IMG/VR virus record: IMGVR_UViG_3300044712_001205
Span: 4,534-68,533 of that record
DNA: 64,000 nucleotides
From: a virus
Strand: one strand, 5' to 3'
The notes under the pieces were generated by a model. It saw nothing but the letters and a program-made list of their open reading frames with translations. It did no database searches and was not told the origin of the DNA. Made by a program: the position numbers and the translations under genes. Below are positions 10,624-25,391 of the stretch, in pieces; the stretch's first letter is position 1, and each line of letters begins with the position of its first letter.

Positions 10624-13280
10624 GAGAAGCTGAACAGTGAAGTGAATGTGTTTTCAGTGTTGGTAGCAGCACCTAGATCCCAGTCCAATACGCCCAATAG
10701 GTTGTCAATCTTACCGTCTACAACAGTGGCTTCCATTTCGCCGTCATCAAACGGCAGCTCTGTAAACCAAGTGGGCAGTCGCTGTTCATCTGTGGGATAA
10801 CCAATAGACGTCCAGCCCAAGGGATTAGATTTGAGCTTGCACACAATGGTCTTCATGCCGTCCACAATGGCCATCGAGTAGTTGTCCGAGTTCATCTTGC
10901 GCATGCTGTTCCAATTCAATGCAGCACGAACGTGTCCGGGCATGTTGGCTTTGCCTTGTTCGGCTTCCTTTTTCCCGTACATGGTCAAGTTGTTCACACG
11001 CTTGGGCGAACCTTTTTCCCATGCTGGACGCTCTTTGAACGCAATCTTGAACTCGCGAATCTTTTCCACAATTTCATCGCGACCAGATCCTGTTAGCACA
11101 TCTTTCAGGATATCGCTTAGGAAGTCTTGAATGACCTTGGGTGTGTCCGAACGTTTGAGATCCAAACCCATGGCCTTGACCTTGCCAGGCTTGCCGTCTA
11201 CATCCACACGCTTGCCTTCTTTGTCAATGATCATCACAGCATAACGCTTCTTGGTAATGAACAGGCCTTTTGATGCCACAACTTCTCGACCGCCCCGGAT
11301 AACTGCGCCCATGTCTCTGGGACAATGAAACGCTTGCTCCATAAAGCCCGGAAAGCTTTCGTTGACTTGTTCAGCAATTGAGTCATACAGCTGGATACAA
11401 ATTTCTTTGGACCACTGCATGCGACCTTGTTCTACTTCCTTTTGCAGCACAGGCCACGCAGAGAAGTAACACGAGTCTGTGTCACCGTAGATGATAGTTT
11501 CGCCTATGTGATCATACACACCAGTTATGCACTCATTGACATAGGCATCCATGTGCTTGGCAATGCTTCGTCCTGTGAGGGTAGTGGATTGGCCAATTCG
11601 CTTATCAAAAAACCTACAGCCAGGATTAAGAATAGCGCCATACAAGCTGTTAAGGTTAATCTTTTTAACCAGCTGGCGTTTGTCCCAGTATTCTTCATCT
11701 TCTTTGATTTCGCACTCTTTGAGTTTGGCCTGCATCTGTTTGCGTTCTGCATACCAGCGTTTGAGCAAGCCCGGAATCACTGCTTCACGTTCAAATGTAA
11801 AGATAGTACCATTGGCACTCAGTGTCCAAGGCTGATTTGAATCAAAGATCATTGACCAAATTTCAGCACCAGACATCACAGTTTCTTCACCATTGGCCCA
11901 ATCCACAGTGATTTGCATGCCACGTTGCTGTTCCATCACAGCAGTGTATTCCAGTGTGGCAAACAATCCTTCCCAGGCAGCAGCAAAGCTCTGTCCCGAA
12001 GCCATGCGCTCACGAATCAGTCGATCTGTGGCTGTGGGTCGCAGTTGTCCCACAATGGTCTCGGGTCCCATGTTCAGCGCACGAATGGTACTGGGATATA
12101 GACTGTTGATGTCAATGCTTCCGATGTATTCGTGCATGCCTTTCTTGGGATAAGCAACATACGCACCTGCTGCCTGGGTGTCCTCGCTGTCTACCCGTTC
12201 TTTGCGATTGGGCACAACCATGCCACGCTCGTGGGCTTCGTTGATAATGGCCTGCTCAGTCACTGCCACAGCACCCATGGTGGTTTGCAGCAACACAGTG
12301 TTTTCGTGTGCCAGTGTGTTGGCTAGATCCAGGAACTTGAGCTTTTTGTCCAACTTGGCCAGCAGTGCAGTATCCTGCCTGTTGTATTCAATGAACTTCT
12401 TAAAGTGTTGGTTGTACAGTTGATCCAGTGTGCCTTCGAACTGTGTTTTGCGCTCGTCCAGCTCGTATTCGCCAATGGCATCCAAGCTGTAGCTGTGACG
12501 TTCTTCATATGTGTACTTGCGATACAGTTGCATATAGTCCATATGCACACGACCAATCAAGTCATATGTTTCTTGTTCAGCACCAAAACGCTCAAACATG
12601 CGCTTCTTGGGCAGTTGTCCCCACAGACAAAACTTGCGAGTATCGTCTTTTGACAGCACTCTGGTACAGCGGTTCACGGTGTAGGGAATGTCATAGCCCT
12701 CACTGTTCCAGCCCGACAGTACGTCTGCATCGTCAATGAGATCAAGAAATGTTTTGATCATTTCTTCTTCGCGCTCGAACAGTATGGTATTGTCAAACTC
12801 CGACACCAGTTCTTGTGCAGTGTCCCAACTGAGATGTTTGGGTGGCACAGCCAGCGTGACCAACTGATCCAGCCAATCCAAGTACACCGAGATAGCAGTG
12901 ATTGGGTTGAATGGATCATGCACAGGCGAGAAGCCACGTTCAGAATCAAACGCTACTTCAATGTCGAAAAATGCTGTGTGCAGTTTTGGAGCATCTTGCC
13001 CTTTGTAGTTTTCTTCAAAGCAACGAAATACTGGATTGATATCCGACTCGTAGATCTGTCGGCCACTTTGAATCCTAAGTTCTTTGCGGAACTCTTTGTT
13101 GTTGCGGCTGCTGAATCTACTGACCGGATTGCCATATATGCTGCGAAACTTACCACGAGGATCGTCGTAGTAAAAAACATACTGGGCAGGGTACTCTTGG
13201 TATCGTCGTTCGCCATCACGGCGTTCGACAACATGAATGCGATCGTGTTCACGATCAAATAGTGCGTCTACGTAACTCAA
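10620..13280 (-). CDS. Family B DNA polymerase with 3'-5' exonuclease
   Basis: FFDIEV, GWNSEGYD, SIDINSLYPS, KINLNSLYG, YGDTDS, KKRYA; TTG start. Confidence 0.97.
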   Translation of the reverse strand: MSYVDALFDREHDRIHVVERRDGERRYQEYPAQYVFYYDDPRGKFRSIYGNPVSRFSSRNNKEFRKELRIQSGRQIYESDINPVFRCFEENYKGQDAPKLHTAFFDIEVAFDSERGFSPVHDPFNPITAISVYLDWLDQLVTLAVPPKHLSWDTAQELVSEFDNTILFEREEEMIKTFLDLIDDADVLSGWNSEGYDIPYTVNRCTRVLSKDDTRKFCLWGQLPKKRMFERFGAEQETYDLIGRVHMDYMQLYRKYTYEERHSYSLDAIGEYELDERKTQFEGTLDQLYNQHFKKFIEYNRQDTALLAKLDKKLKFLDLANTLAHENTVLLQTTMGAVAVTEQAIINEAHERGMVVPNRKERVDSEDTQAAGAYVAYPKKGMHEYIGSIDINSLYPSTIRALNMGPETIVGQLRPTATDRLIRERMASGQSFAAAWEGLFATLEYTAVMEQQRGMQITVDWANGEETVMSGAEIWSMIFDSNQPWTLSANGTIFTFEREAVIPGLLKRWYAERKQMQAKLKECEIKEDEEYWDKRQLVKKINLNSLYGAILNPGCRFFDKRIGQSTTLTGRSIAKHMDAYVNECITGVYDHIGETIIYGDTDSCYFSAWPVLQKEVEQGRMQWSKEICIQLYDSIAEQVNESFPGFMEQAFHCPRDMGAVIRGGREVVASKGLFITKKRYAVMIIDKEGKRVDVDGKPGKVKAMGLDLKRSDTPKVIQDFLSDILKDVLTGSGRDEIVEKIREFKIAFKERPAWEKGSPKRVNNLTMYGKKEAEQGKANMPGHVRAALNWNSMRKMNSDNYSMAIVDGMKTIVCKLKSNPLGWTSIGYPTDEQRLPTWFTELPFDDGEMEATVVDGKIDNLLGVLDWDLGAATNTENTFTSLFSFS

Positions 13281-13355
13281 TTTTTCTCCACTTGTGGCTG
13301 GACAGCCGTTCTACATGCTCGTAACGTGAGCGACTCGGTACTGACGCAGTACTTA
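13281..13355 (-). promoter_or_regulatory. Structured 5' leader of the DNA polymerase gene
   Basis: Inverted repeats GTACTG/CAGTAC (13338-13352), GCTC/GAGC (13317-13331), GGCTG/CAGCC (13296-13307); CCAC/GTGG overlaps the GGAG RBS. Confidence 0.5.
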
Positions 13356-13613
13356 TAGAGTTTTGCCAACGGTTTCAAGAATTGTTTCAAGGATTTCGTG
13401 GTCTTGCTTTTCTTTGCCAAATTCGGCTTTGTGTGCTAGCTTGATAGCTTTCTTGAGAATAGCAGGTTTGATTTCCAGTTCTTCAGCCACGGCTTTGATA
13501 GTGTCATTGAGGCCACCTTGCAGTGTTTCAATTTCGTGCATCACTGCCATGCCTTCGTTGATGATTTGGTTCAACTTGATTTTTTGTTCGCCGTTGAAAG
13601 ATTTGTCGCTCAT
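13353..13613 (-). CDS. DsbA/GapR-like small dsDNA-binding protein
   Basis: 86 aa helical protein, ..LNDTIKAVAEELEIKPAILKKAIKLAHK pattern. Confidence 0.6.
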   Translation of the reverse strand: MSDKSFNGEQKIKLNQIINEGMAVMHEIETLQGGLNDTIKAVAEELEIKPAILKKAIKLAHKAEFGKEKQDHEILETILETVGKTL

Positions 13614-13618
13614 AGAGA

Positions 13619-13662
13619 ATCTCCTAAAATGCTAGTATACACAGCACTTTAGGAGATGTCAA
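13619..13662 (-). promoter_or_regulatory. Near-consensus sigma70 promoter inside a 15-bp inverted repeat that covers the RBS
   Basis: TTGACA-17-TATACT; ATCTCCTAAAATGCT (13619-13633) / AGCACTTTAGGAGAT (13643-13657). Confidence 0.75.
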
Positions 13663-13669
13663 AGATTAT

Positions 13670-13759
13670 TTGCTCACTTTCGAGATCAGGTAGCGAATCC
13701 GAACTCTGAGGCAGCAGCCGCCCACACACCGTAAACGGTAACGGTCCTAAGGTGTGTTC
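13670..13759 (-). ncRNA. Candidate ncRNA made of segments complementary to conserved 23S/16S rRNA
   Basis: Plus strand carries AGGTAGCGAA, GAGGCAGCAGCCGC, GTAAACGG and TAACGGTCCTAAGGT; stem ACACACC/GGTGTGT. Confidence 0.55.
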
Positions 13760-14725
13760 TTACTTGGTGCGGCCTTCTGCCACACCCTGATCTCTTACTG
13801 GACGCACACTGAGCCCACGACCGCTTTTGCCAATGGCTTCTAACCAATCATCGGCTTTGACAAAAGCATCCATTATGTCGTTGGCTTCGAAAGGATGATA
13901 CACTCGTTTCATTGTGCGGAGATCGTAGATTTCAAATTCTCCGGGTTCTTGGCCCGAACCTTCCGCTACACCTTGCTTTTGCTGTTGTAACTCTTTTAAT
14001 CTGGCTTGTAGTTCTTTGATTTTCTTATCATGTGTACCAGCAGTATTCCAATCTTTTAATTGTAGAATTCTGTCTTTGATGCGCTTGATTTGCGAATCTA
14101 CATTTACGCCTTCCGCCACACCTTGATCAAATTCTTGCAAGGCCATATCAAGGAAGTCACTCAACGCCTCCGAGTCCATAGTCTTGGAAAAGACACTCAT
14201 TTTATTACCACTAAGACCACATTCAACATGTTGGCCTTCAGATTGTGCAAGTTTCTTCAATGCTGACATTACTGAACGATATTCTTCTTTTCCGCTAACT
14301 TCAGTGTCTACACGACCTTTATATCCACGTGGCACAAAAGTCTTTGTGCGTTCAAATTCTGCATTGGCATTTGCGGCACTTAGGGCAGGAGCAATGAATG
14401 CTTCCGCCACACCTTGCTCCATGGTGTCTCTGCGACCTGCTGCCCATGTAGAGTAGTCATCACTGTATTCAGTGCTGGGGTCGCGCAGCCGAGGTGCTGG
14501 CTGTGACTTGACAGCAGGATACATGTCAGGATTGGCTGCACGATGGCGCTTGGTATATCCTGCAATGCCTTTATCACGTTTTAGTTCTGTACGGCGAGCA
14601 GCAGCTTTTTCTTCTGGACTCTTGCCAAAAGTTCTTTGTGTAGCTTGTGCTTGACTGCGACTACGCTCTGCTGCACGTAGGTAATCAGGGTTGGCACTGA
14701 CTTCAAATAATTCATTCAACAGCAT
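13760..14725 (-). CDS. Modular putative head-internal protein with four QGVAE linkers
   Basis: N-terminus MLLNELFE; QGVAEA once and QGVAEG three times. Confidence 0.75.
   Translation of the reverse strand: MLLNELFEVSANPDYLRAAERSRSQAQATQRTFGKSPEEKAAARRTELKRDKGIAGYTKRHRAANPDMYPAVKSQPAPRLRDPSTEYSDDYSTWAAGRRDTMEQGVAEAFIAPALSAANANAEFERTKTFVPRGYKGRVDTEVSGKEEYRSVMSALKKLAQSEGQHVECGLSGNKMSVFSKTMDSEALSDFLDMALQEFDQGVAEGVNVDSQIKRIKDRILQLKDWNTAGTHDKKIKELQARLKELQQQKQGVAEGSGQEPGEFEIYDLRTMKRVYHPFEANDIMDAFVKADDWLEAIGKSGRGLSVRPVRDQGVAEGRTK
13773..14416 (-). repeat. Four copies of a 17-bp in-frame repeat, consensus CAAGGTGTGGCGGAAGG
   Basis: Copies at 13773, 13959, 14109 and 14400; spacings 186, 150 and 291 nt, all multiples of 3. 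Confidence 0.85.
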
Positions 14726-14726
14726 T

Positions 14727-15470
14727 TCAGCGTTCCTCTATGTAATCTTGACCGCGGTCTTGACGTTCCCAACGATTCTTAAACAGGTCCATGGCCATTC
14801 GGGCATGATCTGCTTTGGGGAAACGACTGGGCATGGTGCGACCTTGACGGCGTACTTCAAATCCACGACCTTCATCGCCCCAGCATTCTAAACATGAACC
14901 GTCACTCATTTCCACAGTGAACACCGGACCTGCTGACTCAGGCAACACAGGATCTTGCACAGGAGCAGGCGGCGGCGTGACCATGGTGTCTTGTTCTGTG
15001 GGATCTTCTGTGACTTCTTCGGCTTCAGCCTGACCTTTTTGCACAGCACTCACAGCTTTGTCAACAAGGTCACGATCAATCTTGACTTTCTTTTCTAGTC
15101 GATCTAGATCAGGTGTACCTTTTTCACGCTGACCATCGTCGGCCATTTTCTTTTCTAATTTGTCTAAGTAGCTGTTGAGATCAGCTTTGACCTTGCCCAG
15201 CATGTCTTCTTCAACGCTGACCATGGCTTCTTCTAAGGCAGATTTTTTGTGTTCCACACTTTCGTCAGCACCCACAGCATAGCCCTTCATGGGATGTTGT
15301 GGGTCTGTTTTGGCACCCAGTGCTGTGATCTTTTTGGGCTTGAACAGTGCAGGCAACTGTGGCACTGATTTTTGCTGTGGGTTCAAACCACCCTTGACTG
15401 AAGTAGGAGTGGTCTTGCCTTCTTCAATGGCGGTGATACGCTGTAGTATATCACGAATGTCTGCGGTCAT
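14727..15470 (-). CDS. Hypothetical, probably head-associated protein
   Basis: MTADIRDILQRITAIEE leader; acidic x-x-E sites. Confidence 0.7.
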   Translation of the reverse strand: MTADIRDILQRITAIEEGKTTPTSVKGGLNPQQKSVPQLPALFKPKKITALGAKTDPQHPMKGYAVGADESVEHKKSALEEAMVSVEEDMLGKVKADLNSYLDKLEKKMADDGQREKGTPDLDRLEKKVKIDRDLVDKAVSAVQKGQAEAEEVTEDPTEQDTMVTPPPAPVQDPVLPESAGPVFTVEMSDGSCLECWGDEGRGFEVRRQGRTMPSRFPKADHARMAMDLFKNRWERQDRGQDYIEER

Positions 15471-15910
15471 GCTCTAGAGTCTTTCAAGAAACTTCTCAAC
15501 ATCCAACGGTGCTTGCCCATGGCATCAATGCGACCTGCAAGGAAATCACAAATGCCTTGTTGGTCTTCGGCTTCGGCTGCATCAAAAGTTTGGTTCAGCA
15601 GTGCAATCACTTGTTCTGCATCAGCAAACAGTTCTTCGATCATGAGTCGAGCACGTGGGATTTTGGTCTGTCCTGTGATAAGGCTGAGTTCGGCAAAACG
15701 CTCAAAACTGCCAGGTGTGTAGTCGTCTAGTATTCTAATAAATTCTGCGGTTTGGTCTATGCTGTTTTCATAGACTTCTTCATAGATATTGCCAAAAAAT
15801 TCGTGTAGTTGGGCAAAGTCTGGGCCTTCTACGTTCCAATGAAAAAGCTGTGCCTTGATCACAAAGGCATATTGTGTGGCCAACAGTGTTTTTAAATCAT
15901 CAACTAGCAC
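15467..15910 (-). CDS. dps: Dps ferritin-like DNA protection protein
   Basis: HWNVEGPDFAQLHEFF, D..AE.IR, KHRWML; GTG start. Confidence 0.92.
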   Translation of the reverse strand: MLVDDLKTLLATQYAFVIKAQLFHWNVEGPDFAQLHEFFGNIYEEVYENSIDQTAEFIRILDDYTPGSFERFAELSLITGQTKIPRARLMIEELFADAEQVIALLNQTFDAAEAEDQQGICDFLAGRIDAMGKHRWMLRSFLKDSRA

Positions 15911-16088
15911 GTTTTTTCCTCTTGTATTTGGCCGGCGTATTAGGTGTCGGCTCAGATGTATATTTACCTGTTAGCAAACCAGAGCCTGTTCTTGACAACA
16001 TGCCTAGATTACCAATGGCAGGAGCCACACTGCCTGCTGCTGTGGCACCCACACTGGCTGTTTCCATAATTTCACGTATTTTCATCAA
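15900..16088 (-). CDS. Small basic protein with MKIREIMET leader
   Basis: 62 aa, Gly/Ala core, KRKKR tail. Confidence 0.6.
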   Translation of the reverse strand: MMKIREIMETASVGATAAGSVAPAIGNLGMLSRTGSGLLTGKYTSEPTPNTPAKYKRKKRAS

Positions 16089-16368
16089 TGATCTCCAGTA
16101 TATCGTGTTTGTGCAACACAGCTGATCCTACTTCTATTCTGGGGTTCTTCAACCGCAGTTCTGCATGTTCAGGATCCAACAACTCGTATCTAATTTTGTA
16201 CTTACCAGGTGGTGCTTGTATCTGAAATGCTTCTTCGAGATACACGCCTTGCCAATCCCAAGTACGTTCAGCAAACAGTTCATCTTCAACGTAACAACGA
16301 TATCGCGGCGGAGTCCCATCCCAGCGACAATGCACATCAAACACAACTTTGACAAACTGATTGTTCAT
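16072..16368 (-). CDS. Hypothetical protein
   Basis: Start MNNQF at 16368, 5 nt after TAAATA. Confidence 0.65.
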   Translation of the reverse strand: MNNQFVKVVFDVHCRWDGTPPRYRCYVEDELFAERTWDWQGVYLEEAFQIQAPPGKYKIRYELLDPEHAELRLKNPRIEVGSAVLHKHDILEIIDENT

Positions 16369-16373
16369 AAGAA

Positions 16374-16401
16374 TATTTATCAAAAACTACAGCTATAAAT
16401 A
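16374..16401. promoter_or_regulatory. Back-to-back T4-late-like promoters (ATAAATA minus, TATAAATA plus)
   Basis: Divergent genes start 5 and 6 nt downstream, with no SD. Confidence 0.6.
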
Positions 16402-16407
16402 TTTGCC

Positions 16408-17460
16408 ATGTTAAAACTCACTGACATACGCAGAGTTCACGTTGAATTAACCACACGATGCAATGCACGTTGCCCCATGTGCATGCGCAACTATCGTGGC
16501 ATGGATTTCAATTCAGGATACCCTGTTACTGAACTAAGCCTTGAACAGTTTCAATCTATTTTCTCTCCTGTGATACTGGCCAGCATCATGCAGCCTGATC
16601 CTCCTGTAAACGGGCGTGTGCCTGTAAATCACGGATTTACACACGGATTCTCCTTCAACGGCAACCTTGGAGATTTTGGCTCAGCACGCGACGGTGCAGA
16701 AATAGTCAAGTATCTGGTGGACCATGGCGTGCCTGTGATGATCAACACCAACGGCAGTGTGCGTAGTGCTGAATGGTGGGCAAGACTGGCACTGCCTGGT
16801 GTTGAAATTGGCTGGGCCATAGACGGGCTAGCCGATACTCATGCACTGTATCGCCAGGACACAGACTGGCACAGAATCATTGATCATGCCAAGGCATTTA
16901 TTGCTGCTGGCGGCCGTGCTGTATGGCGCTTTGTACCGTTTGAACACAACCGCCATCAAGAACAGGCTTGCCGAGATTTAGCGCAAGAACTGGGTTTTGC
17001 TAAGTTTGAAAACATCTATGACGGCAGAGACAATGGACCTGCGTTCTCACGCATTGGAGAGTTCAGTCATCAGATTGGCAACGACCCTGGGTTTGACGGT
17101 ACTCCTAGGGATATCAAACCGTTGTTGGAAAATCACATCACCTGGTACAACAGCAAAACTGTACGAGAACCACGTGACACACCTGAACTCAACATACAAT
17201 GCATTCACAAACGCAACAGAGAAATCTATGTTGCAGCTGATGGTACTGTGTATCCCTGCTGCTTTTTGGGATTCTATCCCGCCACAATGAATCATCCTGG
17301 CAACCAAGAACTAGCGCCGCTGATACACGAAAACAATGCTCTTGAATATCCTTTGGAGCATTGCTTGGAGTGGTTTGATCGTGTAGAGCAGACTTGGCAA
17401 TTAAATAGTATTGCAGAGGGTAGAACATACCAATGCGTTAAAACTTGTAACAGAATTTAA
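16408..17460 (+). CDS. Radical SAM protein with SPASM/twitch domain
   Basis: CNARCPMC; C-terminal C...DGTVYPCC...CVKTC. Confidence 0.9.
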   Translation: MLKLTDIRRVHVELTTRCNARCPMCMRNYRGMDFNSGYPVTELSLEQFQSIFSPVILASIMQPDPPVNGRVPVNHGFTHGFSFNGNLGDFGSARDGAEIVKYLVDHGVPVMINTNGSVRSAEWWARLALPGVEIGWAIDGLADTHALYRQDTDWHRIIDHAKAFIAAGGRAVWRFVPFEHNRHQEQACRDLAQELGFAKFENIYDGRDNGPAFSRIGEFSHQIGNDPGFDGTPRDIKPLLENHITWYNSKTVREPRDTPELNIQCIHKRNREIYVAADGTVYPCCFLGFYPATMNHPGNQELAPLIHENNALEYPLEHCLEWFDRVEQTWQLNSIAEGRTYQCVKTCNRI

Positions 17461-17461
17461 T

Positions 17462-18478
17462 ATGACTTCAGCAAAAATTGTTTACCTTGCACGTTATCGT
17501 GTACCACATGCCTTGATGGCATTGCAACCCGAGTTCAGTCGACATCTCGTTGGAGTGGATAGAACCTGTATTGCCAGTCCTGTGCCCAAAGAAGAGCTTT
17601 GGCCTATTTTTGAAAAATACGGCATTGACACTTCAAACTTTGATTATGCACCTGATTCGGAAATTTATAGACTATATCCCGAAGTAAACAATTGGGTGTT
17701 TGACGATGACTACAGAGGTTGGTGGCTGCGACAACAGGCCATTAAACTGGCATTTCTAGATTACTTAGATTATGATCTCATGGTTATGAATGACCCTGAC
17801 TGTATATTGATTCGTGATTACGAGCCTTTTAAAAACGGTCAACTCAACTACATGGTGCTGGAAAACGAACGACACAGTTGGGGCTATTACGAAACTATCA
17901 AGAATGCATTGGGATTTGAACGGCAGACTCCACATTGTTTTATCAGCGAATATGTACCTGTGCTTAAACAAGATATTACTGATCTAAGATTATTCTTAGA
18001 ACAAAAGCATAAATGCAAGTGGTTAGATGCTATCATTGATCACTGCCCCGGAGAACCCACAGTTCCGCCATGGGGCAACGGAGAACTTATACGCTGGCTG
18101 TCTGAATACGAACTTGTGGGCAACTGGACTATGAGTCGTAGACCGATAACCATGGAACCACAACGCAGATACATGTATGATGACATGACCAAAATTGGCG
18201 GATTTGATCCTGATTATCATACCGCAGTTTGTGATGCAGTTCCTGACCTAAGTCGTAGTGTACAATTCGACTGGCAAACCAACGAAGTCAAAGATTTTGA
18301 TCGTTGGATGGATTTGATAAGACAGCGATTGAGCCAAGCCACAGGAGTCATCAAAACTTCCATTGAAGAAGAGATTTGTCCCGGACAAGCCAATCGTGAT
18401 TGGCTAGGACGATCAGCCGAGAGCGATCGATCTTTAAGCGAACGATTTGGTAACAATTATAACGCATACAAACCATGA
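17462..18478 (+). CDS. DUF6492-like putative glycosyltransferase
   Basis: GWWLRQQAIKL, DPD (DxD), SEYELVG; start MTSAK at 17462. Confidence 0.55.
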   Translation: MTSAKIVYLARYRVPHALMALQPEFSRHLVGVDRTCIASPVPKEELWPIFEKYGIDTSNFDYAPDSEIYRLYPEVNNWVFDDDYRGWWLRQQAIKLAFLDYLDYDLMVMNDPDCILIRDYEPFKNGQLNYMVLENERHSWGYYETIKNALGFERQTPHCFISEYVPVLKQDITDLRLFLEQKHKCKWLDAIIDHCPGEPTVPPWGNGELIRWLSEYELVGNWTMSRRPITMEPQRRYMYDDMTKIGGFDPDYHTAVCDAVPDLSRSVQFDWQTNEVKDFDRWMDLIRQRLSQATGVIKTSIEEEICPGQANRDWLGRSAESDRSLSERFGNNYNAYKP

Positions 18479-19533
18479 CTGAACTTTCTCAACTAAAAAT
18501 TTATAGCCCTGGATATCAAGCCATTGACTGGGGCTTTGATTATCCTCAAGTGGTTAGCTTAGAAGAAGCACTGGATCAGCCTACCAAGATTGCTGCCTTG
18601 CCTGTGCATTATAACAATCCTCAAAATTTTGCTTACAAAGAAGAATTTCAAAGTGTAGATTTGTCGCAGTTTGATCTAGTGTTATTCACGGACATTCAGT
18701 TCAGTCGACAAACAGAACTTGTGAATTGGATCAGTACTACCAACGCAAAAAATTGGCTATTGAGTGTAGCTGGATTGTATTCAGACGAAACATTGGACTC
18801 ACGTACTGTTTATCGACCATGGTGGAGTTTTACGTTCTTGCAATGGAATCCACCGCGAGATGATTTTCCATTGGATCGACCTTACATGTACGATTGCTTA
18901 TCCGGCTCACGACGTGATCACAGAGATTACGTAATGCTGTCACTGGAAAAACACAACCTGTTAGACCGAGGCATAGCTACCTACAGAGATATTTTTATAG
19001 GCAACAGCTTTGACAAAACTCCGCATCATGTTGCCAAACATTTTCCAGGTCAAACTTTAACTTGGCCATATGTGAGTCCTAATTTAAAACCTGAATGGGA
19101 AGTTCGTGAAAATTTAGATCATTCTATCAGCAGCATTGTCCCTTGGGAGATTTACAATAGAACTTACTTTACTATTCTTGTAGAAACATTGAGTTCAGGC
19201 AATTGCTATCTCATGGCTGAAAAGATCGGTAAGTGTTTGTATGGTCGAAGATTGTTTGTGCATTTTGGTGTTGCACACTGGCTTGAAAGGCTGCGATCTT
19301 TTGGATTCAAAACGTTTGACGGTATCATCGACGAAAGTTATGACAGCATTGATGATGACGTCGAACGCTGGAAAGCAGCATTCGCACAAGTAGAATATCT
19401 CAGCAAACAAAATCTAGTTGATGTGTTGCTGCAATCAAAACGAATACTGGATCATAACCACAGACGCCTGTATGAATTCAAACAAGAAAAATACGACGAA
19501 ATGTGGCGCATGATCCAGCCGCACTTACGCTAA
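18475..19533 (+). CDS. Hypothetical GT-B-like protein
   Basis: FTILVET...AEKIGK...LRSFGFKTFDGIIDESYD C-terminal pattern. Confidence 0.5.
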   Translation: MTELSQLKIYSPGYQAIDWGFDYPQVVSLEEALDQPTKIAALPVHYNNPQNFAYKEEFQSVDLSQFDLVLFTDIQFSRQTELVNWISTTNAKNWLLSVAGLYSDETLDSRTVYRPWWSFTFLQWNPPRDDFPLDRPYMYDCLSGSRRDHRDYVMLSLEKHNLLDRGIATYRDIFIGNSFDKTPHHVAKHFPGQTLTWPYVSPNLKPEWEVRENLDHSISSIVPWEIYNRTYFTILVETLSSGNCYLMAEKIGKCLYGRRLFVHFGVAHWLERLRSFGFKTFDGIIDESYDSIDDDVERWKAAFAQVEYLSKQNLVDVLLQSKRILDHNHRRLYEFKQEKYDEMWRMIQPHLR

Positions 19534-20337
19534 ACCAAAGTCATTGCTGATCCTGCTGTAGTAGTTGTCAGCAATGATTTGTTGTCCTTGGGGTCCTGAG
19601 TGATAACCGGGATCTTCCCCTTCAAAAGGATTGTTACCGCAAATAGGCAGTACAGACTCGCGCTCGTTGAACATTACGTATCGATCTGGAATGGCATCAG
19701 TTATTACTCTACGCCACTGATTTTGTCCAGCAGCTGGATCAAACGGCCACAACAACACAGGCACAAACAAGAAGTTGATACCAGCATGATACAGTTCAAA
19801 AATACCTTCTTTGATCAACCACTCGTCTTGTTGTTTTTTCCACTCTGAATCATAGATAGCATCGATGTAATGTCTCACTGCGGTCTGTGCTGTTTTGCTG
19901 ATCAGGCCTGATCTATATGGATGCTCATAGTTCTCGGCCAGAGTGTAGATAGTTTCACAGATCATGTTGTAGTTGTTGTTGCCGTAGTTAACGTTGTTGA
20001 TGCCGTCGGCTCTGTTGTATCCGTTTTTCAAACTGCGGTCTTGCAAATGACGTTGTATATCGGGGTTCCACCCACCGGTACTCTTCTTCCAATCAAAAGG
20101 TGCAGCAGTGGCAGGTATCTCCATTCTATCCCAAAACGTAGGAGTAATCACAGCAAAGTCCGGGCGCTGACGCAGGATTTCTTCTATCTGCACACGTATG
20201 CCTCCGTTTGAACAACCTTGACGTGCAAGATTTTCCAAATCCCAACCCAGTCGTTGTGCCAATAGCTCACTCCAGCTGGTGCCTGGTAATCGTTGTGACG
20301 GTGCTGAAAAACTGCAACCTGCTACCATTAATTTCAT
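19525..20337 (-). CDS. SGNH/GDSL hydrolase-like protein
   Basis: VAGCSFS, NLARQGCSN, C-terminal DPGYH. Confidence 0.65.
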   Translation of the reverse strand: MKLMVAGCSFSAPSQRLPGTSWSELLAQRLGWDLENLARQGCSNGGIRVQIEEILRQRPDFAVITPTFWDRMEIPATAAPFDWKKSTGGWNPDIQRHLQDRSLKNGYNRADGINNVNYGNNNYNMICETIYTLAENYEHPYRSGLISKTAQTAVRHYIDAIYDSEWKKQQDEWLIKEGIFELYHAGINFLFVPVLLWPFDPAAGQNQWRRVITDAIPDRYVMFNERESVLPICGNNPFEGEDPGYHSGPQGQQIIADNYYSRISNDFGLA

Positions 20338-20858
20338 TGTGATTCCTTGTAACTGTTTTGATGTGTGTGTTGATGAAAGCCGGCTACAATATCTTTGTGC
20401 AACGGTAGTTCATCTAAACTGTATGTACCTTCAGGCACAGCATAAGTTGTGCCTTCGCCGGGTTTGGCAAAAGTTATCAATTGTGGATGATGCTTAACTG
20501 CATCATGCACCAACTTATGATGTATATGTCCATAATCTCCGTGTTCGTCGTGTGTGAGAACCAGATCATAGTCTTTGACCAGTTGTTGGCAAGCTGCTGT
20601 GGCATCTATACCAAGCCAACGTGTTAGTTGTTTCTGTTCATTGTCGTGCCAGTGATCTTCAAAACCCAAGAACACTGTGGCAATGTTTCTATGCTGCCAA
20701 AACTTGGCCATTTCTGCACCTCGTGGATCTGCGGCTTGGTATGTTAAGTAACCAACGGTCCAGTTGTATTCTGGATGTGCATGGATATAACTGTATCCAA
20801 AGATTATGCAGTCATCCGGGTGTGCTACCAGGCACAGTGCATTTAGTTTAGATTCCAT
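20334..20858 (-). CDS. PIG-L/LmbE family deacetylase
   Basis: VAHPDD; TH...GDYGHIHH. Confidence 0.85.
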   Translation of the reverse strand: MESKLNALCLVAHPDDCIIFGYSYIHAHPEYNWTVGYLTYQAADPRGAEMAKFWQHRNIATVFLGFEDHWHDNEQKQLTRWLGIDATAACQQLVKDYDLVLTHDEHGDYGHIHHKLVHDAVKHHPQLITFAKPGEGTTYAVPEGTYSLDELPLHKDIVAGFHQHTHQNSYKESQ

Positions 20859-21682
20859 GCTTCAGTGATTCCACGATCTATTAGCAAATTTCTATACTGT
20901 TGTTTTTGTTCTGGTGTCAACGCAGACCAGGCATTCCTATGTATACTCACAGCGTGAGACCGACTCATGTTAGAAATTTTTTGATCAGCTATGCCAGTTT
21001 CACTGTGACACAGATTCACTGGCCATATTTGTTGACTCGAAGTAGCATACAAGGCCTCTAAACTGCCAAACTTGTATTTGACATAGCCTGAATACAATAT
21101 AAACTCTGTGAGCATGCCTTGAGCTTGAAACCACTCAGGGAAGTTTTGCTGTGTTTTTACAGTGACATCGGCGATCATCATTCTCACTGTGTTGTTGTGA
21201 AAAATGTAAGGCACGCCTCCTGGTCCAATCTGTGTGTCTAAATCAATATCAAAAGTACGGTTTACAATTTGTCGCGATGGCTCAAACACTGACTGTATGG
21301 GCAAAAATCCTGCGACTATTTTTCCATTGGAATCTATCAGTTCATTGAGATGAAGTTCTTGGGTAATTATGGTTTTGGCATCCAGCACCATGGTACAGGT
21401 GTTGTAGCTCATTGAAGGGACCAGCAGTTTCCAAAGTTGTTGTGTGAGCCAACCGTTGTCAACCCAAGGAGTAGAAAATGCTGTTCTAGGAACTACTAGC
21501 ACCAAAGGTGCTAATTCACCCCACCACGTAGGATCAATGTCATTGACTAGAGTTTCGTCGTCGTTGACTACAACATAGATATTGCGGATGCCAAGATTGC
21601 GGCAGTAAAGAGCAATGCTCTGCGCTTGCAAGCGCAGCACAGGAAGTTCTTGTCTGAAAACAACAGTGCAAAGATCGATCAT
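20843..21682 (-). CDS. DUF6492-like putative glycosyltransferase
   Basis: GWLTQQLWKL, VLDAK, TEFILYS; same motifs as the 17462 gene. Confidence 0.55.
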   Translation of the reverse strand: MIDLCTVVFRQELPVLRLQAQSIALYCRNLGIRNIYVVVNDDETLVNDIDPTWWGELAPLVLVVPRTAFSTPWVDNGWLTQQLWKLLVPSMSYNTCTMVLDAKTIITQELHLNELIDSNGKIVAGFLPIQSVFEPSRQIVNRTFDIDLDTQIGPGGVPYIFHNNTVRMMIADVTVKTQQNFPEWFQAQGMLTEFILYSGYVKYKFGSLEALYATSSQQIWPVNLCHSETGIADQKISNMSRSHAVSIHRNAWSALTPEQKQQYRNLLIDRGITEAWNLN

Positions 21683-21715
21683 GCACTTATGTATCAGACA
21701 AGTTTGGGTAGATGA

Positions 21716-23185
21716 TTATTTAGATTGTGGAGGGTTAACCGGTACAGTTTTGTACACACGTTTCACAGGATCCCACACAGTTTTACGAGGACCTTGTCCG
21801 GCTAACTGTTTGAGACGGCTCATGGCATCGTCAAAACGATCTGCATCCATATTGCCAACTTTGTTGCCCTCGCCTAGGTCTCGATCGTTGGAATAATCGC
21901 CCGAGTCATAATCTGATTTACGAGCACTCTTAAAGTATGCAAAGTCAGGGTCGTGGAATTTACCATCATTACCTAGGCTGCCGGTTTTGGGATCATCCCA
22001 TTCTTTGCGTTTTACTACGGTGCGGCCAGGAGTTGTTGTAACACTCACAGGGCCATTTGCACCTCTAAACTCGCGTTCGCTTTCGTCGACACCTTCTTTG
22101 GGCACACAGTTGGGAACCATGCGGTCACCTTTTTTCTTCATGCCTACTTGACGATGTGTGTCCCAACACTTTTCGTCTAGTTGTTCTTCAAATGTAGACA
22201 CAGGGGGAACTCTGGATGAAGTTTTACGCTTAGCCATTTCACGCTTGTATGCTTCTGGATCAGTCTGCTTTAGTTTTGCTAAACGCTGTTTTTCTTTTTC
22301 TATTTTAGCAATCATACGCTGTTCAACATCGCCGGCGTCGTCTTCCGCCACACCTTCTTTTTTAGTGAATACATTGTGACCAAATCTATCACCATATTGT
22401 TGTGTATTGATAGTGACAGTTCTGCCAGGATATGTCAAATATGAATTGTGGGCACGGCCCATAGCATCATACTTGTGACGGTATTCACCTGGGGTGCCGT
22501 GTGCTGTGATATACTTTTCAACTTCACTGTGATGTGCTTGTTCAAAATCGTTGTTGATGCCTTCCGCCACATCTTGCTCTTGACCTTGCACATCAGCAAT
22601 AGCACCGTTGGTAAGTTTAACCATCATAGGACCTTGTGGGCCAAACATACGCTTGAAGCCTGCCGTAGTCATACGACCAGCTTCTGTGCCGTCTCGGATA
22701 TCGCCAATGCGCTTGTCAGTGATAGCAATGGCACTACCACGTGGTAGTATTTTCTTACCATTAGCAGACTTCATTGATAGCAAGTCTTGTAGAATAGCAT
22801 CAGCGTTATCTAGTACAACCTGGCGTGCTTCTTCTGGACTGGTTGCCAGTACATAATAGTATCTACCGCTGTAATCACTGTACTTGCCGCGATAGTAGTT
22901 GTTCATGATAACAACTTGCCACGACTTCAAACCTTTTAACGCATTAAATGTTGTCTCTGGGCTTGCCTCTGCTACACCTTCAGACTTGTTGCCCCAGTTG
23001 GCAGCACCTTTTTTACGGCACTGAACCAAGGCACCCGACGCATAAGCCGATGGCCATACTTTGTAGCGACTGCGAACCTTGTGATAGCAAGCATCTTTCT
23101 TTTCTGCCAACAACAAGTCGCTGAAAGCAGGGCCGCCACACTCAGGACAGGTTTGCGGTGATTCAAATAAGTCGTCTACAATCAT
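21716..23185 (-). CDS. Modular putative head-internal polyprotein (GVAE linkers, Cys-pair micro-domains)
   Basis: MIVDDLFE leader; EGVAEA, QDVAEG, EGVAED and EGVDES linkers. Confidence 0.75.
   Translation of the reverse strand: MIVDDLFESPQTCPECGGPAFSDLLLAEKKDACYHKVRSRYKVWPSAYASGALVQCRKKGAANWGNKSEGVAEASPETTFNALKGLKSWQVVIMNNYYRGKYSDYSGRYYYVLATSPEEARQVVLDNADAILQDLLSMKSANGKKILPRGSAIAITDKRIGDIRDGTEAGRMTTAGFKRMFGPQGPMMVKLTNGAIADVQGQEQDVAEGINNDFEQAHHSEVEKYITAHGTPGEYRHKYDAMGRAHNSYLTYPGRTVTINTQQYGDRFGHNVFTKKEGVAEDDAGDVEQRMIAKIEKEKQRLAKLKQTDPEAYKREMAKRKTSSRVPPVSTFEEQLDEKCWDTHRQVGMKKKGDRMVPNCVPKEGVDESEREFRGANGPVSVTTTPGRTVVKRKEWDDPKTGSLGNDGKFHDPDFAYFKSARKSDYDSGDYSNDRDLGEGNKVGNMDADRFDDAMSRLKQLAGQGPRKTVWDPVKRVYKTVPVNPPQSK
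22080..22981 (-). repeat. Further copies of the 17-bp GVAE repeat
   Basis: Copies at 22341, 22560 and 22965, degenerate copy at 22080; spacings 261, 219 and 405 nt. Confidence 0.75.
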
Positions 23186-23442
23186 TTTTTCTTAGTAGCC
23201 ACGTTGATGGCTGCTCCTTTGCGTTCTGGATTGGGGTCTTGTCTACGTTTTCTAGCAGCAGCCGAAGCACGACCTTTTTTGCCCAGGGCATGTGCTTTTG
23301 ACTGTGGCAAACACTTGGGCTTGCCTTCGCTATCGTCGCCCCGAGCACAAGCACCACGAATTTTACCGTCAGGGCCAAATCGCACCCACTTTTCTTTGAA
23401 CCACTTGCGTAGATTCTCGTTGACGAATTCGTTTGCTCGCAT
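23182..23442 (-). CDS. Small basic protein with MRANEFVNE leader
   Basis: LRKWFKEKW...C...KPKCLP; TAAATA 7 nt upstream. Confidence 0.75.
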   Translation of the reverse strand: MRANEFVNENLRKWFKEKWVRFGPDGKIRGACARGDDSEGKPKCLPQSKAHALGKKGRASAAARKRRQDPNPERKGAAINVATKKK

Positions 23443-23448
23443 AATAAG

Positions 23449-23934
23449 TTATTTACCAGCTTTGGCCAGTGCAGCACCCTTGTTGAAACTGGGGCTCCAA
23501 CTCAAGGGATCACGTTGATTTCTTTGGTACCATGCATAGCCAGCACGATGTCCAGAGCAGTCGTATGTACATTCGCTGCCCAGGAAAGTGAGTTCATCCA
23601 GCTGTTCAGGTATTTCAATCTCGGGTGTGTCGCTTTGATACGTGCGATTTTGCACAGCAGTTTTGAACTGAAAGCGCATTTGGTCAGCAGAGATCTTACG
23701 CAGCCCTACACTGACACCAGAGGCAGAATCACGAATCCATATCTTGGAACCAGAATCCATGGACTCTAATTCATCTCGCACAGCAGGTAGTTTACGAAAC
23801 ACACCGTCCACAGCTCGTGGATCGATTTCTCTCATGTACACCTGCTCAATGGCATGATCATCGACCACAATCACAATATCGCCAATGCGTATTGATCCTA
23901 CAGCAGCCTCATTTATAAACTCACGTGCTTTCAT
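23449..23934 (-). CDS. Hypothetical protein with MKAREFINE leader and C-terminal CTYDCSGHRAGY module
   Basis: Start set at 23934, 7 nt after TATAAATA. Confidence 0.7.
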   Translation of the reverse strand: MKAREFINEAAVGSIRIGDIVIVVDDHAIEQVYMREIDPRAVDGVFRKLPAVRDELESMDSGSKIWIRDSASGVSVGLRKISADQMRFQFKTAVQNRTYQSDTPEIEIPEQLDELTFLGSECTYDCSGHRAGYAWYQRNQRDPLSWSPSFNKGAALAKAGK

Positions 23935-23949
23935 ATACAAGTATTTATA

Positions 23950-24400
23950 GGGATCGCTGAGCGATCCAAGCTTCGCTTTCAGCTCGCTTTGTTTATAAAA
24001 ACACACAAGAGATATTTCGCTAGATTGTGAGGCCATACGACACCCAGAAATTCTGGGCGTCAAGACATTCGCTGAGTTGCTCAGCCACACTTGTGACAGC
24101 AGGTATTTGTGTTGTCTACTGCTCTGGGCTCTGTACCTTACCCCACCTGCTACGATTTTTAAAGCGACTTCGGTGTCAAGTGTCGCTATGGCAGTGTTAG
24201 ACAATAAGCTAGCTCACGCTACGCTCAACCCGTACGACTGTTCTAACGCTACTGCCACGGGGCAGACGTTTTCTCTGGGCATCCCTGCGTCACAGGGGTA
24301 GAGAACAGAAGCCTCTTGTACAAAGAAGAGGATGGTTACCGTGAGACATCACCACGGATTCACCAGCGGAATATCAACCGGCCCGCCAACCTTGTGTTGT
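23950..24400 (-). ncRNA. Candidate large structured ncRNA (or structured DNA element)
   Basis: At least ten helices, with ACACAAG (24003) / CTTGTGT (24391) closing most of the region; strand inferred from flanking genes. Confidence 0.55.
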
Positions 24401-24423
24401 ACTAATTTTTTAAAAGATAGTGA

Positions 24424-24837
24424 TTAAGTTATGGGACCGCCTTCGACCCATGCATCGCAGGTTCGTTTGGCAGCACATTTGAATTTGAGAAATTTACAAT
24501 ATCCGAGATGACCAGCATCCACAGTGTCCTGTGGGTCTGATCCGGGCTCGGCCCCGATACCTTTGGCCATACAATCCATCATGCTTTCGCTCATGTCAAA
24601 TGCTGCACAATTACCGCAGCGAGCGCTCTTGGCGTCGTCGGGATCACTCATGTTCCATTCGTCGGCTTTGGCTTGCCAAAACTCTTCGTTGGGTGCGTTG
24701 GGATCTAATGGACCGTATCTGTATTCGTCGATGGCTTTTTGTCTGTTCTTTAAGTTTAGGTCAATGTTTTGTGTGGCAGGAGGACAGCCACGTTCCACGG
24801 CTTCCATAAAATTGATATAGTCTCTGATAGTTTTCAT
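24424..24837 (-). CDS. Cys-rich protein with HiPIP-like spacing
   Basis: CGNCAAF...GYCKFLKFKCAAKRTCDAW. Confidence 0.55.
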   Translation of the reverse strand: MKTIRDYINFMEAVERGCPPATQNIDLNLKNRQKAIDEYRYGPLDPNAPNEEFWQAKADEWNMSDPDDAKSARCGNCAAFDMSESMMDCMAKGIGAEPGSDPQDTVDAGHLGYCKFLKFKCAAKRTCDAWVEGGPIT

Positions 24838-25391
24838 TTTTTACGTCCTGATTTCATGTTGGCACACCAATGATACATTTTGCCACGCTCACCGCCGTAC
24901 TTACGTGCTCGCGCTCGCAAGTCTGATACTGACCCTTTGCAACTGGCACCTGCACGTTTCACACGTCCGGGTCTACTCTTGCCTTTGACTTTGCCATCAG
25001 CAAAGTTTTCATTGAGTTTTGATAATGCTTCTACTAGCCCTGGATGCATGGGTTCGGGCAGTTGATCTTGCTCGACCCAACACCAGTCTTTGCTTTCCTG
25101 ATTTATTCGGGGTTCAAATTCCCGTGGCACACGGCCTATGAATGTAGCATACTGACCTGTGCGGTGCAGCGGTTCTAACTTGAGCGGACCCACATATCCA
25201 CCTTCTTCTGCAAGTTCTCTGCGTACAGCCTGTTCCAGTGTTTCGCCTGGCTCTACGCCACCGCCCCAGGTTGACCACACGCCAGGATCACTCACAGTAT
25301 CACTACGCTGCTGCAAGCACCAACGTCCTGTGTCTTCGGCTACAACAATGCAGCCTGCTGACTTTGGCTGTGTGAATTCGCTGGCTCGCAT
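24834..25391 (-). CDS. NUDIX hydrolase with basic C-terminal peptide
   Basis: GGGVEPGETLEQAVRRELAEEGG Nudix box; MRASEF leader. Confidence 0.88.
   Translation of the reverse strand: MRASEFTQPKSAGCIVVAEDTGRWCLQQRSDTVSDPGVWSTWGGGVEPGETLEQAVRRELAEEGGYVGPLKLEPLHRTGQYATFIGRVPREFEPRINQESKDWCWVEQDQLPEPMHPGLVEALSKLNENFADGKVKGKSRPGRVKRAGASCKGSVSDLRARARKYGGERGKMYHWCANMKSGRKK

Follow-up and report, generated by a model that had tools for sequence, protein, structure and literature searches.

A translated 17-nucleotide repeat as putative shuffling junction and candidate cleavage site in cassette polyproteins of a giant phage

Two cassette-array genes and the box they share

The DNA analysed here is a stretch of 64,000 nucleotides (nt), hereafter the window, corresponding to positions 4,534 to 68,533 of the viral record IMGVR_UViG_3300044712_001205 in IMG/VR. 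Its minus strand carries two genes, P0001 and P0002, in which a short repeat, hereafter the box, recurs between protein segments; the consensus junction is an in-frame box of 17-20 nt, CAA GGT GTG GCG GAA GG(C), translated as QGVAEG. A preliminary description, made from the letters of the DNA, had seen in this repeat both a recombination site for exchanging protein cassettes, working like an integron within a reading frame, and a site at which a phage protease frees each cassette inside the capsid. Our own reading, which we regard as somewhat probable when taken as a whole, is that the box is a shuffling junction and a candidate cleavage site in cassette polyproteins of a giant phage. The genes, the cassettes referred to below and the boxes are listed here, with reference to contigs from X5, a public freshwater run from another study.

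13760..14725, minus: P0001, 321 amino acids (aa); leader MLLNELFE, four cassettes, four boxes, ending in QGVAEG-RTK-stop
21716..23185, minus: P0002, 489 aa; leader MIVDDLFE, five or six cassettes, three boxes and one degenerate box, common C-terminal module (KTVWDP..RVYK)
22574..22966, minus: P0002 cassette 2, aa 74-204, a compact alpha/beta domain with a predicted local distance difference test score (pLDDT) of ~90
22355..22561, minus: P0002 cassette 3, aa 209-277, cleanly missing from a related X5 contig
23182..23442, minus: open reading frame (ORF) of 86 aa with the same leader type (MRANEFVNE), its stop overlapping the P0002 start (ATGA)
13773..13789, minus: box, two mismatches, DQGVAEG, four residues ahead of the P0001 stop
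13959..13975, minus: box, one mismatch, KQGVAEG; an X5 contig fuses this point to the end of P0002 cassette 4
14109..14125, minus: box, exact, DQGVAEG; an X5 contig fuses this point to the P0002 box at 22341-22357
14400..14416, minus: box, one mismatch, EQGVAEA; X5 contigs part from the window at 14418
22341..22357, minus: box, two mismatches, KEGVAED; one boundary of an exact 219-nt deletion in X5
22560..22576, minus: box, one mismatch, EQDVAEG; second boundary of the 219-nt deletion in X5
22965..22981, minus: decayed box, EGVAEA, between the Cys-rich first cassette and the 131-aa cassette of P0002
22080..22096, minus: decayed box, EGVDES, 3' of the small CW..PNCVP cassette
22181..22189, minus: junction of P0002 cassettes 4 and 5 (..FEEQ/LDEKCW.., the slash marking the junction), box lost

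The repeat copies claimed in the preliminary description are real. Six copies of CAAGGTGTGGCGGAAGG with 0-2 mismatches were found, all on the minus strand (starting at 13773, 13959, 14109, 14400, 22341 and 22560), against a chance expectation of 0.21, and none of 100 shuffles gave six. The two further copies, at 22965 and 22080, are decayed, with five DNA mismatches each, yet they remain in frame and encode EGVAEA and EGVDES. At the boxless FEEQ/LDEKCW junction the relative P0010 carries EQGVAEGQLDEKCW, and an X5 contig joins a box at the same point. When the count was extended to the whole 68,533-bp contig, a six-frame scan for [GD]V[AD]E returned eight in-frame box sites, confined to the two genes, together with one unrelated plus-strand match (window 40144); the box peptide in this contig is [QEK][GD]V[AD]E, with four copies in P0001 and four in P0002. 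Copy spacing is 186, 150 and 291 nt in P0001 and 261, 219 and 405 nt in P0002, every value being a multiple of 3 as claimed, and a recount of the seven [GD]VAE copies in the window returned the reported codons (Ala as GCG in five and GCA in two, Val as GTG in five and GTA in two). The segments between copies proved to be mutually unrelated, with lengths of 46-131 aa and membership of separate sequence clusters, and some are AT-richer, segment GC ranging from 35 to 50%. The exact 17-mer also occurs in at least 120 stretches of cellular genomes, the 80 listed being all single-copy and from unrelated taxa; since ~70 would be expected by chance in 596 Gb, this count is uninformative.

Neither protein had a match in Pfam. 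P0001 likewise had none in PHROGs, where P0002 matched unknown-function families only, and a Foldseek search of the PDB with the whole P0002 model as sole query gave no match at E <= 0.001. The AlphaFold2 model of P0002, built on a 78-sequence alignment, has a mean pLDDT of 65.9 and consists of confident compact domains (residues 75-203 at ~90) that alternate with segments of pLDDT < 50, and the boxes at residues 70-73, 205-208, 278-281 and 365-368 all fall within these low-scoring segments. P0001 and P0002 are cassette-array polyproteins, in which independently folding, unrelated small domains are strung together in one ORF.

A C-terminal module of P0002 (..NMDADxFDxAMxRLKxLAG..KTVWDPxxRVYK.., residues ~430-489, window 21719-21900) was found in 41 of 121 relatives, forming the end of 31 of these polyproteins and lying internally in 10 more. 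It is modelled by AlphaFold as a helix followed by a beta-hairpin, and may represent a common docking or targeting element.

Synonymous positions of the box had been proposed to be constrained at the DNA level, and we compared them with codon usage at loci found by peptide patterns that excluded the box, together with the window contig itself, to avoid ascertainment bias. Across 27 ORFs with 77 GVAE motifs, Gly was encoded by GGT in 74, Val by GTG in 70 and Ala by GCG in 66, whereas the same codons account for 50%, 16.5% and 5.4% in the rest of the same genes. Among 47 independent junctions, both flanks of which are unlike any other junction, the three codons were retained in 44, 43 and 39 cases, respectively, and 30 of the 47 read exactly GGTGTGGCGGAA, compared with 0.36% expected from codon usage. 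Conservation therefore goes far beyond codon usage and the sites do not vary freely. The conserved block extends from about nt -5 to +14, with flanks of ~0.1 bit, in a profile that is biased upward in that it takes in loci chosen by the 17-mer. Five large genomes hold 3-9 copies each (<=2 mismatches), all on one strand and clustered in few places, and a reversed control pattern had no copies in the same five genomes. Among 81 distinct copies (<=2 mismatches) we counted 31 third-position, 9 first-position and 8 second-position changes, including none at position 2 of Val, none at position 1 of Glu and a single one at position 2 of Glu. By these counts, the box is constrained at the nucleotide level, with its synonymous sites frozen, and at the protein level too, with Val and Glu nearly invariant.

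Conservation at the nucleotide level would also be expected of an RNA-level signal, in which the purine-rich AAGGTG..GGAAGG acts as a Shine-Dalgarno-like pause for domain folding, as an internal start or as an RNA processing site. GTG and GCG are indeed uncommon in these genes and the box sits at domain boundaries. However, GGT, CAA and GAA within the box are common codons, so that rarity is not the conserved property, and the constraint on Val and Glu is left unexplained. Moreover, Met is not enriched 3' of the box (0.5-4.5% at P2'-P10' against a background of 2.6%, in 625 junction contexts), so internal initiation is not a general alternative, and translation starts after the box, considered as a candidate in their own right, were rejected on this ground. 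We therefore consider an RNA-level signal very improbable.

Cassette exchange and breakpoints at the box

Both proteins have numerous relatives among metagenomic sequences and viral contigs. For P0002, more than 6,665 were counted among metagenome proteins (8,000 candidates scored), which match piecewise at up to 97% identity over 8-85% of length and which, among the matches listed, measure 268-853 aa; P0001 has 75 in the metagenome protein collection. Their cassettes occur in different orders and combinations, with QGVAEG as the link at nearly all junctions. P0004 places cassette 3 of P0002 ahead of cassette 2, P0005 fuses the first cassettes of P0002 and P0001, and P0019 contains P0001 cassette 2, while P0126 keeps the first cassette of P0001 with different interior cassettes, as does P0130, which also keeps the odd tail QGVAEG-RTK. 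In 121 proteins (67,017 aa) GVAE occurs 259 times, at least once in 100 proteins and at least twice in 74, preceded by Q (161), E (58) or K (30) and followed by G (162), A (40), E (24) or D (17). Cutting 215 polyproteins at the motif yielded 924 cassettes (minimum length 20 aa, median 104 aa), which fall into 464 clusters including 331 singletons. The commonest clusters have 14-23 left and 15-46 right neighbour types; the family of P0002 cassette 2, one of the two commonest in the sample, has 52 copies with 21 left and 39 right neighbour types. Pfam recognised DUF5872, DUF6321, GP88, Sigma70_r4, TonB_2 (TonB C-terminal), CTP_transf_like (a cytidylyltransferase) and, in one relative (P0147), ParB_N among the cassettes of relatives.

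In cultured phages (INPHARED), neither a megablast search with window 13000-24000 nor a tblastn search with P0001 gave a match, and tblastn with P0002 and P0019 retrieved two small Cys-containing modules only, mainly from cyanophages, and no polyprotein. These two modules (..CYHKVRSRYKVWPSAYASGALVQCRKKG.. and ..CWDTH..PNCVP.., window 22979-23105 and 22094-22190) co-occur in one annotated hypothetical protein. The pair was found in 374 cultured-phage records, mostly from Synechococcus and Prochlorococcus myoviruses, and these modules are the sole parts of the system seen in cultured phages. A further observation concerns P0180, a relative of P0001, which ends in repeated NUMOD3-type DNA-binding motifs. 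Such motifs are typical of homing endonucleases, and a tie between cassettes and mobile endonucleases is possible.

Alignment breakpoints coincide with the box. In a blastn comparison of the two window genes with 82 viral loci, the high-scoring segment pairs (HSPs) start and stop at box positions, and cassettes are common to different phages at 72-93% nucleotide identity. Across 101 distinct polyprotein ORFs we counted 60 places where an HSP of at least 90% identity ends internally; in 44 of these the nearest box centre is no more than 12 nt away, compared with 5.9% for random positions. We also aligned contigs of four public runs, among them X5, to window 13000-24500. One X5 contig passes directly from the box at 22341-57 to that at 22560-76 and lacks exactly 219 nt, a clean in-frame loss of P0002 cassette 3. 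In two other X5 contigs the P0001 boxes at 14109-25 and 13959-75 are joined to opposite ends of P0002 cassette 4, and one of these contigs shares 973 nt with the window, with six differences, right up to the box; the joins on both sides of this cassette thus describe a P0001-like gene with its third cassette replaced. In X5 and in a second run, X7, loose contig ends also begin at box edges. Logan contigs are assembled with words longer than 17 nt, and a 17-nt repeat should therefore not produce the X5 joints by misassembly.

Orthologous sites were compared in the two closest large records, those of the relatives G003 and G007, whose PolB is 88% and 86% identical to that of the window, respectively, and in which the genes flanking the polyprotein sites are collinear (55-84% amino-acid identity). 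At the P0001 site, G003 has no insert, whereas G007 has 3.5 kb of different genes. At the P0002 site it is G007 that has no insert, and G003 encodes a polyprotein of 376 aa that resembles P0002 in its leader and shares its C-terminal module but has two QGVAEG boxes and different cassettes. The polyprotein sites are therefore hyperplastic. A fixed domain order, which would have spoken against the preliminary description, was not seen. The proposal that the repeat is a site of cassette exchange is likewise borne out by the reordered cassettes, by the breakpoints and by the box-to-box deletion and replacement in X5. Taken together, these comparisons indicate that the box very probably acts as a breakpoint for the deletion, replacement and recombination of cassettes, within and between genes and between phages.

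The P0001 site (window 13614-13759 / 14726; locus L335, 19461-19650; locus L336, reverse complement, 15693-19248) is bounded by a conserved ORF of 247-251 aa and by a regulator-like ORF of 86 aa. Four ORFs make up the G007 insert at this site (300, 134, 433 and 216 aa), and MIVSELFNE is the leader of the 300-aa one.

Breakpoints at the box could also arise if it were a protease site and nothing else, QGVAEG being selected as a cleavage or linker peptide, its identical DNA being a by-product of recent copying or lateral spread, and HSPs ending there as the sole shared sequence. Such a reading agrees with the protein-level constraint, and with the 72-93% identity of shared cassettes the junctions could be young. 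It is at odds with the retention of the rarest Ala codon (GCG, 5%) and an uncommon Val codon (GTG, 17%) in 83-91% of the 47 independent junctions, and with the survival of the exact 17-mer in phages as distant as G004, whose PolB is only 64% identical to that of the window. We consider it distinctly unlikely; in practice it differs from our favoured reading, in which the box is also a shuffling junction, only on whether the capacity to recombine is selected.

With regard to the mode of exchange, a short repeated site in fixed orientation that bounds mobile cassettes might suggest a site-specific system of the integron or shufflon type, with a dedicated recombinase recognising the 17-nt box. 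However, no tyrosine recombinase (PF00589; positive control 14 of 14 genomes) and no serine recombinase (PF00239; positive control 12 of 14 genomes) was detected in the window contig or in four relatives of 97-100% completeness, nor was any recombinase present among the scanned neighbour genes of the polyproteins. The 17-mer is short and, on inspection, lacks dyad symmetry, and the conserved block of only ~20 nt is too short for a hairpin of the attC type. The likeness to an integron drawn in the preliminary description thus does not hold, and a site-specific system appears extremely improbable. By contrast, a RecA/UvsX-like gene is present in all four near-complete relatives. From the lack of either recombinase and the short, non-palindromic box we infer that cassettes are likely exchanged by the general RecA/UvsX-type homologous recombination of the phage. 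Crossovers would take place between short identical boxes and, because all copies share strand and frame, each would give an in-frame product. Fresh junctions would necessarily receive a well-matched box, whereas junctions that no longer recombine would decay, as in the window EGVDES at 22080, EGVAEA at 22965 and the lost box at FEEQ/LDEKCW may have done. Such a cycle would explain the frozen synonymous sites without foresight.

The box as a candidate protease site

The window contig represents ~20% of a genome (CheckV estimate) and holds no head genes. We infer a genome of ~350 kb for the window phage, which is uncultured; its relatives are phages of ~340-350 kb with a T4-type head. PF03420 (Peptidase_S77, the T4 gp21 family) was detected in 6 of 10 large box-bearing contigs, G003 included. 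The four contigs lacking PF03420 also lack a complete head module, three having no portal match and one being cut inside the portal gene. In relatives the head block is T4-like, with portal, acidic protein, protease, scaffold and Gp23-type capsid, and the protease gene adjoins the T4-type capsid gene. According to the available text of PMC5694885 and PMC9026906, the gp21-family proteases of T4, phiKZ and SPN3US all cut after Glu within short motifs. Head proteins of G003 and G004 hold many hydrophobic-x-E sites, with L-L-E and L-A-E as candidate sites; the G004 scaffold protein contains KLVAE/G and RFVAE/S, and QLLAE/S stands ahead of the mature domain of the capsid protein (slashes mark the candidate cuts).

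The box is itself a hydrophobic-x-Glu site, after the Glu of which a prohead protease of this family could cut. Each cassette would then be freed as a separate small protein, probably inside the capsid, and delivered with the DNA in the manner of T4 internal proteins. The leader of the cassette-array genes, with the consensus M-x-[LI]-x-[DE]-[LF]-F-E, would serve as a targeting propeptide (..L-F-E). Among 118 full-length relatives, 42 begin M-x4-5-h-x-E (h, hydrophobic), 9 begin MSNIxKGLNE, another h-x-E is seen among residues 1-15 in 38, and 29 lack such a site.

The strongest indirect argument for cleavage comes from twin-arginine (Tat) signal peptides, of which four were found in 298 polyproteins. 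Each of them is internal, at positions between 112 and 609, and starts 2-4 residues past a box Glu, at QGVAE/AEGM-SRRGFLKG, ESIDE/DL-SRRGFLKG, ASVDE/ADM-NRRGFLKG and EQGVAE/DL-SRRGFLKG, with Pfam TAT_signal scores of 21.4-23.0 bits (cut-off 22.7). No Met precedes two of the four, and in two a TonB C-terminal domain comes next. Tat signals are normally read at a free N-terminus, and cleavage after the box Glu would create one. We consider cleavage after this residue fairly probable.

Several points weigh against our reading. At 17-20 nt the box is short for RecA-type recombination, and the joints seen in X5 may stem from co-occurring related phages rather than from variants of one population. 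The protease attributed to the window phage is deduced from relatives, PF03420 having not been found in its own contig, which is ~20% complete and without head genes. The motif GVAE is missing from four head-block proteins of G003 and G004, namely capsid, scaffold, protease and the neighbouring acidic protein, and the box is therefore not simply the universal site of that protease. The polyprotein genes lie among replication and accessory genes and not beside head genes. No more than 51 of the 118 full-length relatives have a clean h-x-E leader, and three of the four TAT_signal matches fall slightly under the Pfam cut-off. Finally, the last box of P0001 stands four residues ahead of the stop and 10 relatives end in GVAEGRTK, which is hard to explain by a need for cleavage.

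These protein ends fit more readily with an alternative in which the box is a recombination linker only, offering short homology and a flexible spacer, and in which the products are uncleaved multidomain 'polyvalent' proteins. Neither the breakpoints nor the DNA conservation require cleavage, and polyvalent phage proteins of 2-15 domains are known, some being packaged unprocessed, according to the available text of PMC5512222. Nevertheless, non-synonymous changes in the box are ~3.6-fold rarer than third-position changes, and the near-invariance of Val and Glu is not required of a mere spacer; in addition, four internal Tat signals, of a kind normally read at a free N-terminus, begin 2-4 residues past the box Glu. 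We regard a linker without cleavage as unlikely.

Returning to the box as both junction and candidate cleavage site, we propose only tentatively the further step in which the prohead protease makes the cut within the capsid and the products are then ejected. More tentative still is the fullest version, in which the 17-nt box is a dual device, at once a capsid protease site and a translated recombination junction, through which a community of giant phages would have hundreds of small effector cassettes in common and could combine them in frame and in any order, so that a rapidly changeable cocktail of proteins would be injected with the DNA. Cassettes with a Tat signal and a TonB-like domain would, in such a system, be re-targeted to the host periplasm.

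Known systems, implications and gene surroundings

No description of a QGVAEG box was found in the literature searched, supplements not being covered. The system resembles a combination of three things known from T4-type phages, namely variable internal proteins with a cleavable leader, shuffling at PeSLs and motif exchange in gp38 adhesins, and it fits the broad definition of polyvalent proteins, yet it is a member of none of these. Its repeat is translated and 17-20 nt long, has frozen synonymous sites and stays uniform although the cassette families it joins number in the hundreds and are unrelated.

The polyproteins resemble the T4 internal proteins (IPI, IPII, IPIII and Alt, with the capsid targeting sequence and gp21) in that they belong to a lineage with a T4-type head and, in the relatives with head genes, a gp21-family protease, in that they are diverse, non-conserved accessory proteins with a candidate cut after Glu, and in that many of them begin with a short leader that ends in hydrophobic-x-Glu. 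The T4 targeting sequence is a 10-residue leader cut after Glu, and foreign fusions to it are packaged, as the available text of PMC9026906 and PMC8442874 describes. However, T4 internal proteins are single and are cut once, whereas here several unrelated cassettes share an ORF, a candidate site stands at each junction and the site is frozen in DNA. Also comparable are the inner-body and ejection proteins of the giant phages phiKZ, 201phi2-1 and SPN3US, where, according to the available text of PMC5694885 and PMC9026906, many head-internal proteins are cut after Glu by a gp21-like protease, at A-x-E or S/A/G-x-E and at multiple sites. Those cuts strip propeptides from single proteins and do not separate unrelated cassettes, and no conservation of the sites at the DNA level is reported in that text.

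PeSLs are short conserved repeats that flank variable accessory genes in hyperplastic regions, where recombination between repeats deletes, inserts or replaces a unit (PMC2839356, available text). The loci of the box are also hyperplastic, as the P0001 site in G003 and G007 illustrates. In contrast to PeSLs, which are intergenic, ~100 bp long and composed of a sigma-70-like promoter with a stem-loop terminator, the box measures 17-20 nt, and all of its copies are intragenic and are translated in a single frame. In the gp38 adhesins of T-even phages, hypervariable segments lie between conserved glycine-rich motifs, and exchanges occur at those in-frame motifs (PMC3157838, available text). There, however, a single domain has these motifs as its structural core and depends on all of its segments together, whereas here the domains are separate and unrelated and the box lies in linkers of pLDDT < 50.

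Polyvalent proteins of phages and conjugative elements, as defined by Iyer, Burroughs, Anand, de Souza and Aravind in 2017, are mosaic, predicted to be packaged and delivered, and sometimes released by proteolysis (PMC5512222, available text). The proteins studied here likewise combine several unrelated domains per polypeptide, in keeping with the 2-15 of that class, in a mosaic architecture, and the ParB_N domain of P0147 is of a type named in that text. On the other hand, the available text of PMC5512222 does not contain the word 'linker' and mentions no uniform junction motif or conserved box, release, where proposed there, being ascribed to built-in peptidase domains. Its set includes MPTase; no peptidase domain was found in the polyproteins scanned. 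Most of our cassettes are very small domains to which no function can be assigned.

Integrons and shufflons share with the present system arrays of exchangeable units bounded by a repeated short site. Both depend on a tyrosine recombinase and on sites that are structured or inverted; we found no such enzyme and no such sites, and our units are parts of one reading frame. Specifically, IntI has no counterpart, in that PF00589 is lacking from the window contig and the four near-complete relatives; instead of attC, with its imperfect inverted repeats of ~60-140 nt that form hairpins, there is conservation from about nt -5 to +14 and no dyad on inspection; and, whereas a shufflon has inverted repeats and an Rci-type recombinase that inverts C-terminal segments, the copies are all on one strand in each of the five genomes and no tyrosine recombinase was detected. 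As a conceptual analogy, cyanobactin precursor peptides have conserved recognition sequences around hypervariable core cassettes.

If our reading is correct, repeat-mediated modular shuffling, known between genes in T4-type phages, would also operate inside a reading frame, and the constraint on one short sequence would be twofold, as a homology box in the DNA and as a protease site in the peptide. Such a dual device would constitute an evolvability mechanism within an ORF, with no described phage counterpart. The box also marks out a large unexplored pool of small phage proteins, since 464 cassette families with easily recognised boundaries were obtained from a small sample, and these cassettes are natural candidates for host-takeover and anti-defence functions. 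A natural module for joining and cleaving in frame might furthermore serve as a tool for protein engineering. At the same time, genes of this kind will confuse orthology and domain annotation in metagenomic phage genomes.

Other genes of the window are listed here.

23182-23442, 23449-23934, 24834-25391, 38589-39476 and 9682-10623, minus: genes with a leader of the M-R/K-A-x-E-F type, which also occur in L335 and L336
15467-15910, 20334-20858, 20843-21682 and 25391-29455, minus: accessory neighbours, comprising ferritin-like, PIG-L deacetylase-like and DUF6492 proteins and a 1,354-aa ORF with weak PHROG matches including amidoligase
16408-19533, plus: three tandem genes of ~350 aa each, between the two polyprotein genes
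32876-35131, minus: gene for a 751-aa ClpA/ClpB-like double AAA+ unfoldase

The M-R/K-A-x-E-F-type leaders (MRANEFVNE, MKAREFINE, MRASEFTQP, MRAIEFLRE and MKLSDLVDY) stand on single-domain accessory genes, those for a NUDIX hydrolase and a GNAT acetyltransferase among them. G003 and G007 share this leader (MRANEF.., MRASEF.. and MRAQEF..), which may be either a common targeting propeptide or a recombination linker at the level of genes.

The block of three tandem genes is kept in G003 and G007. The first of them matches Radical_SAM at 27.8 bits, just under the Pfam cut-off of 29.5, and SPASM, also under the cut-off. The T4 late promoter motif TATAAATA lies 7 nt upstream of its start; with three occurrences in the window, where 1.08 would be expected, the motif is not significantly enriched. 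The ClpA/ClpB-like unfoldase, with Clp_N, AAA, AAA_2 and ClpB_D2-small domains, is an unusual gene for a phage.

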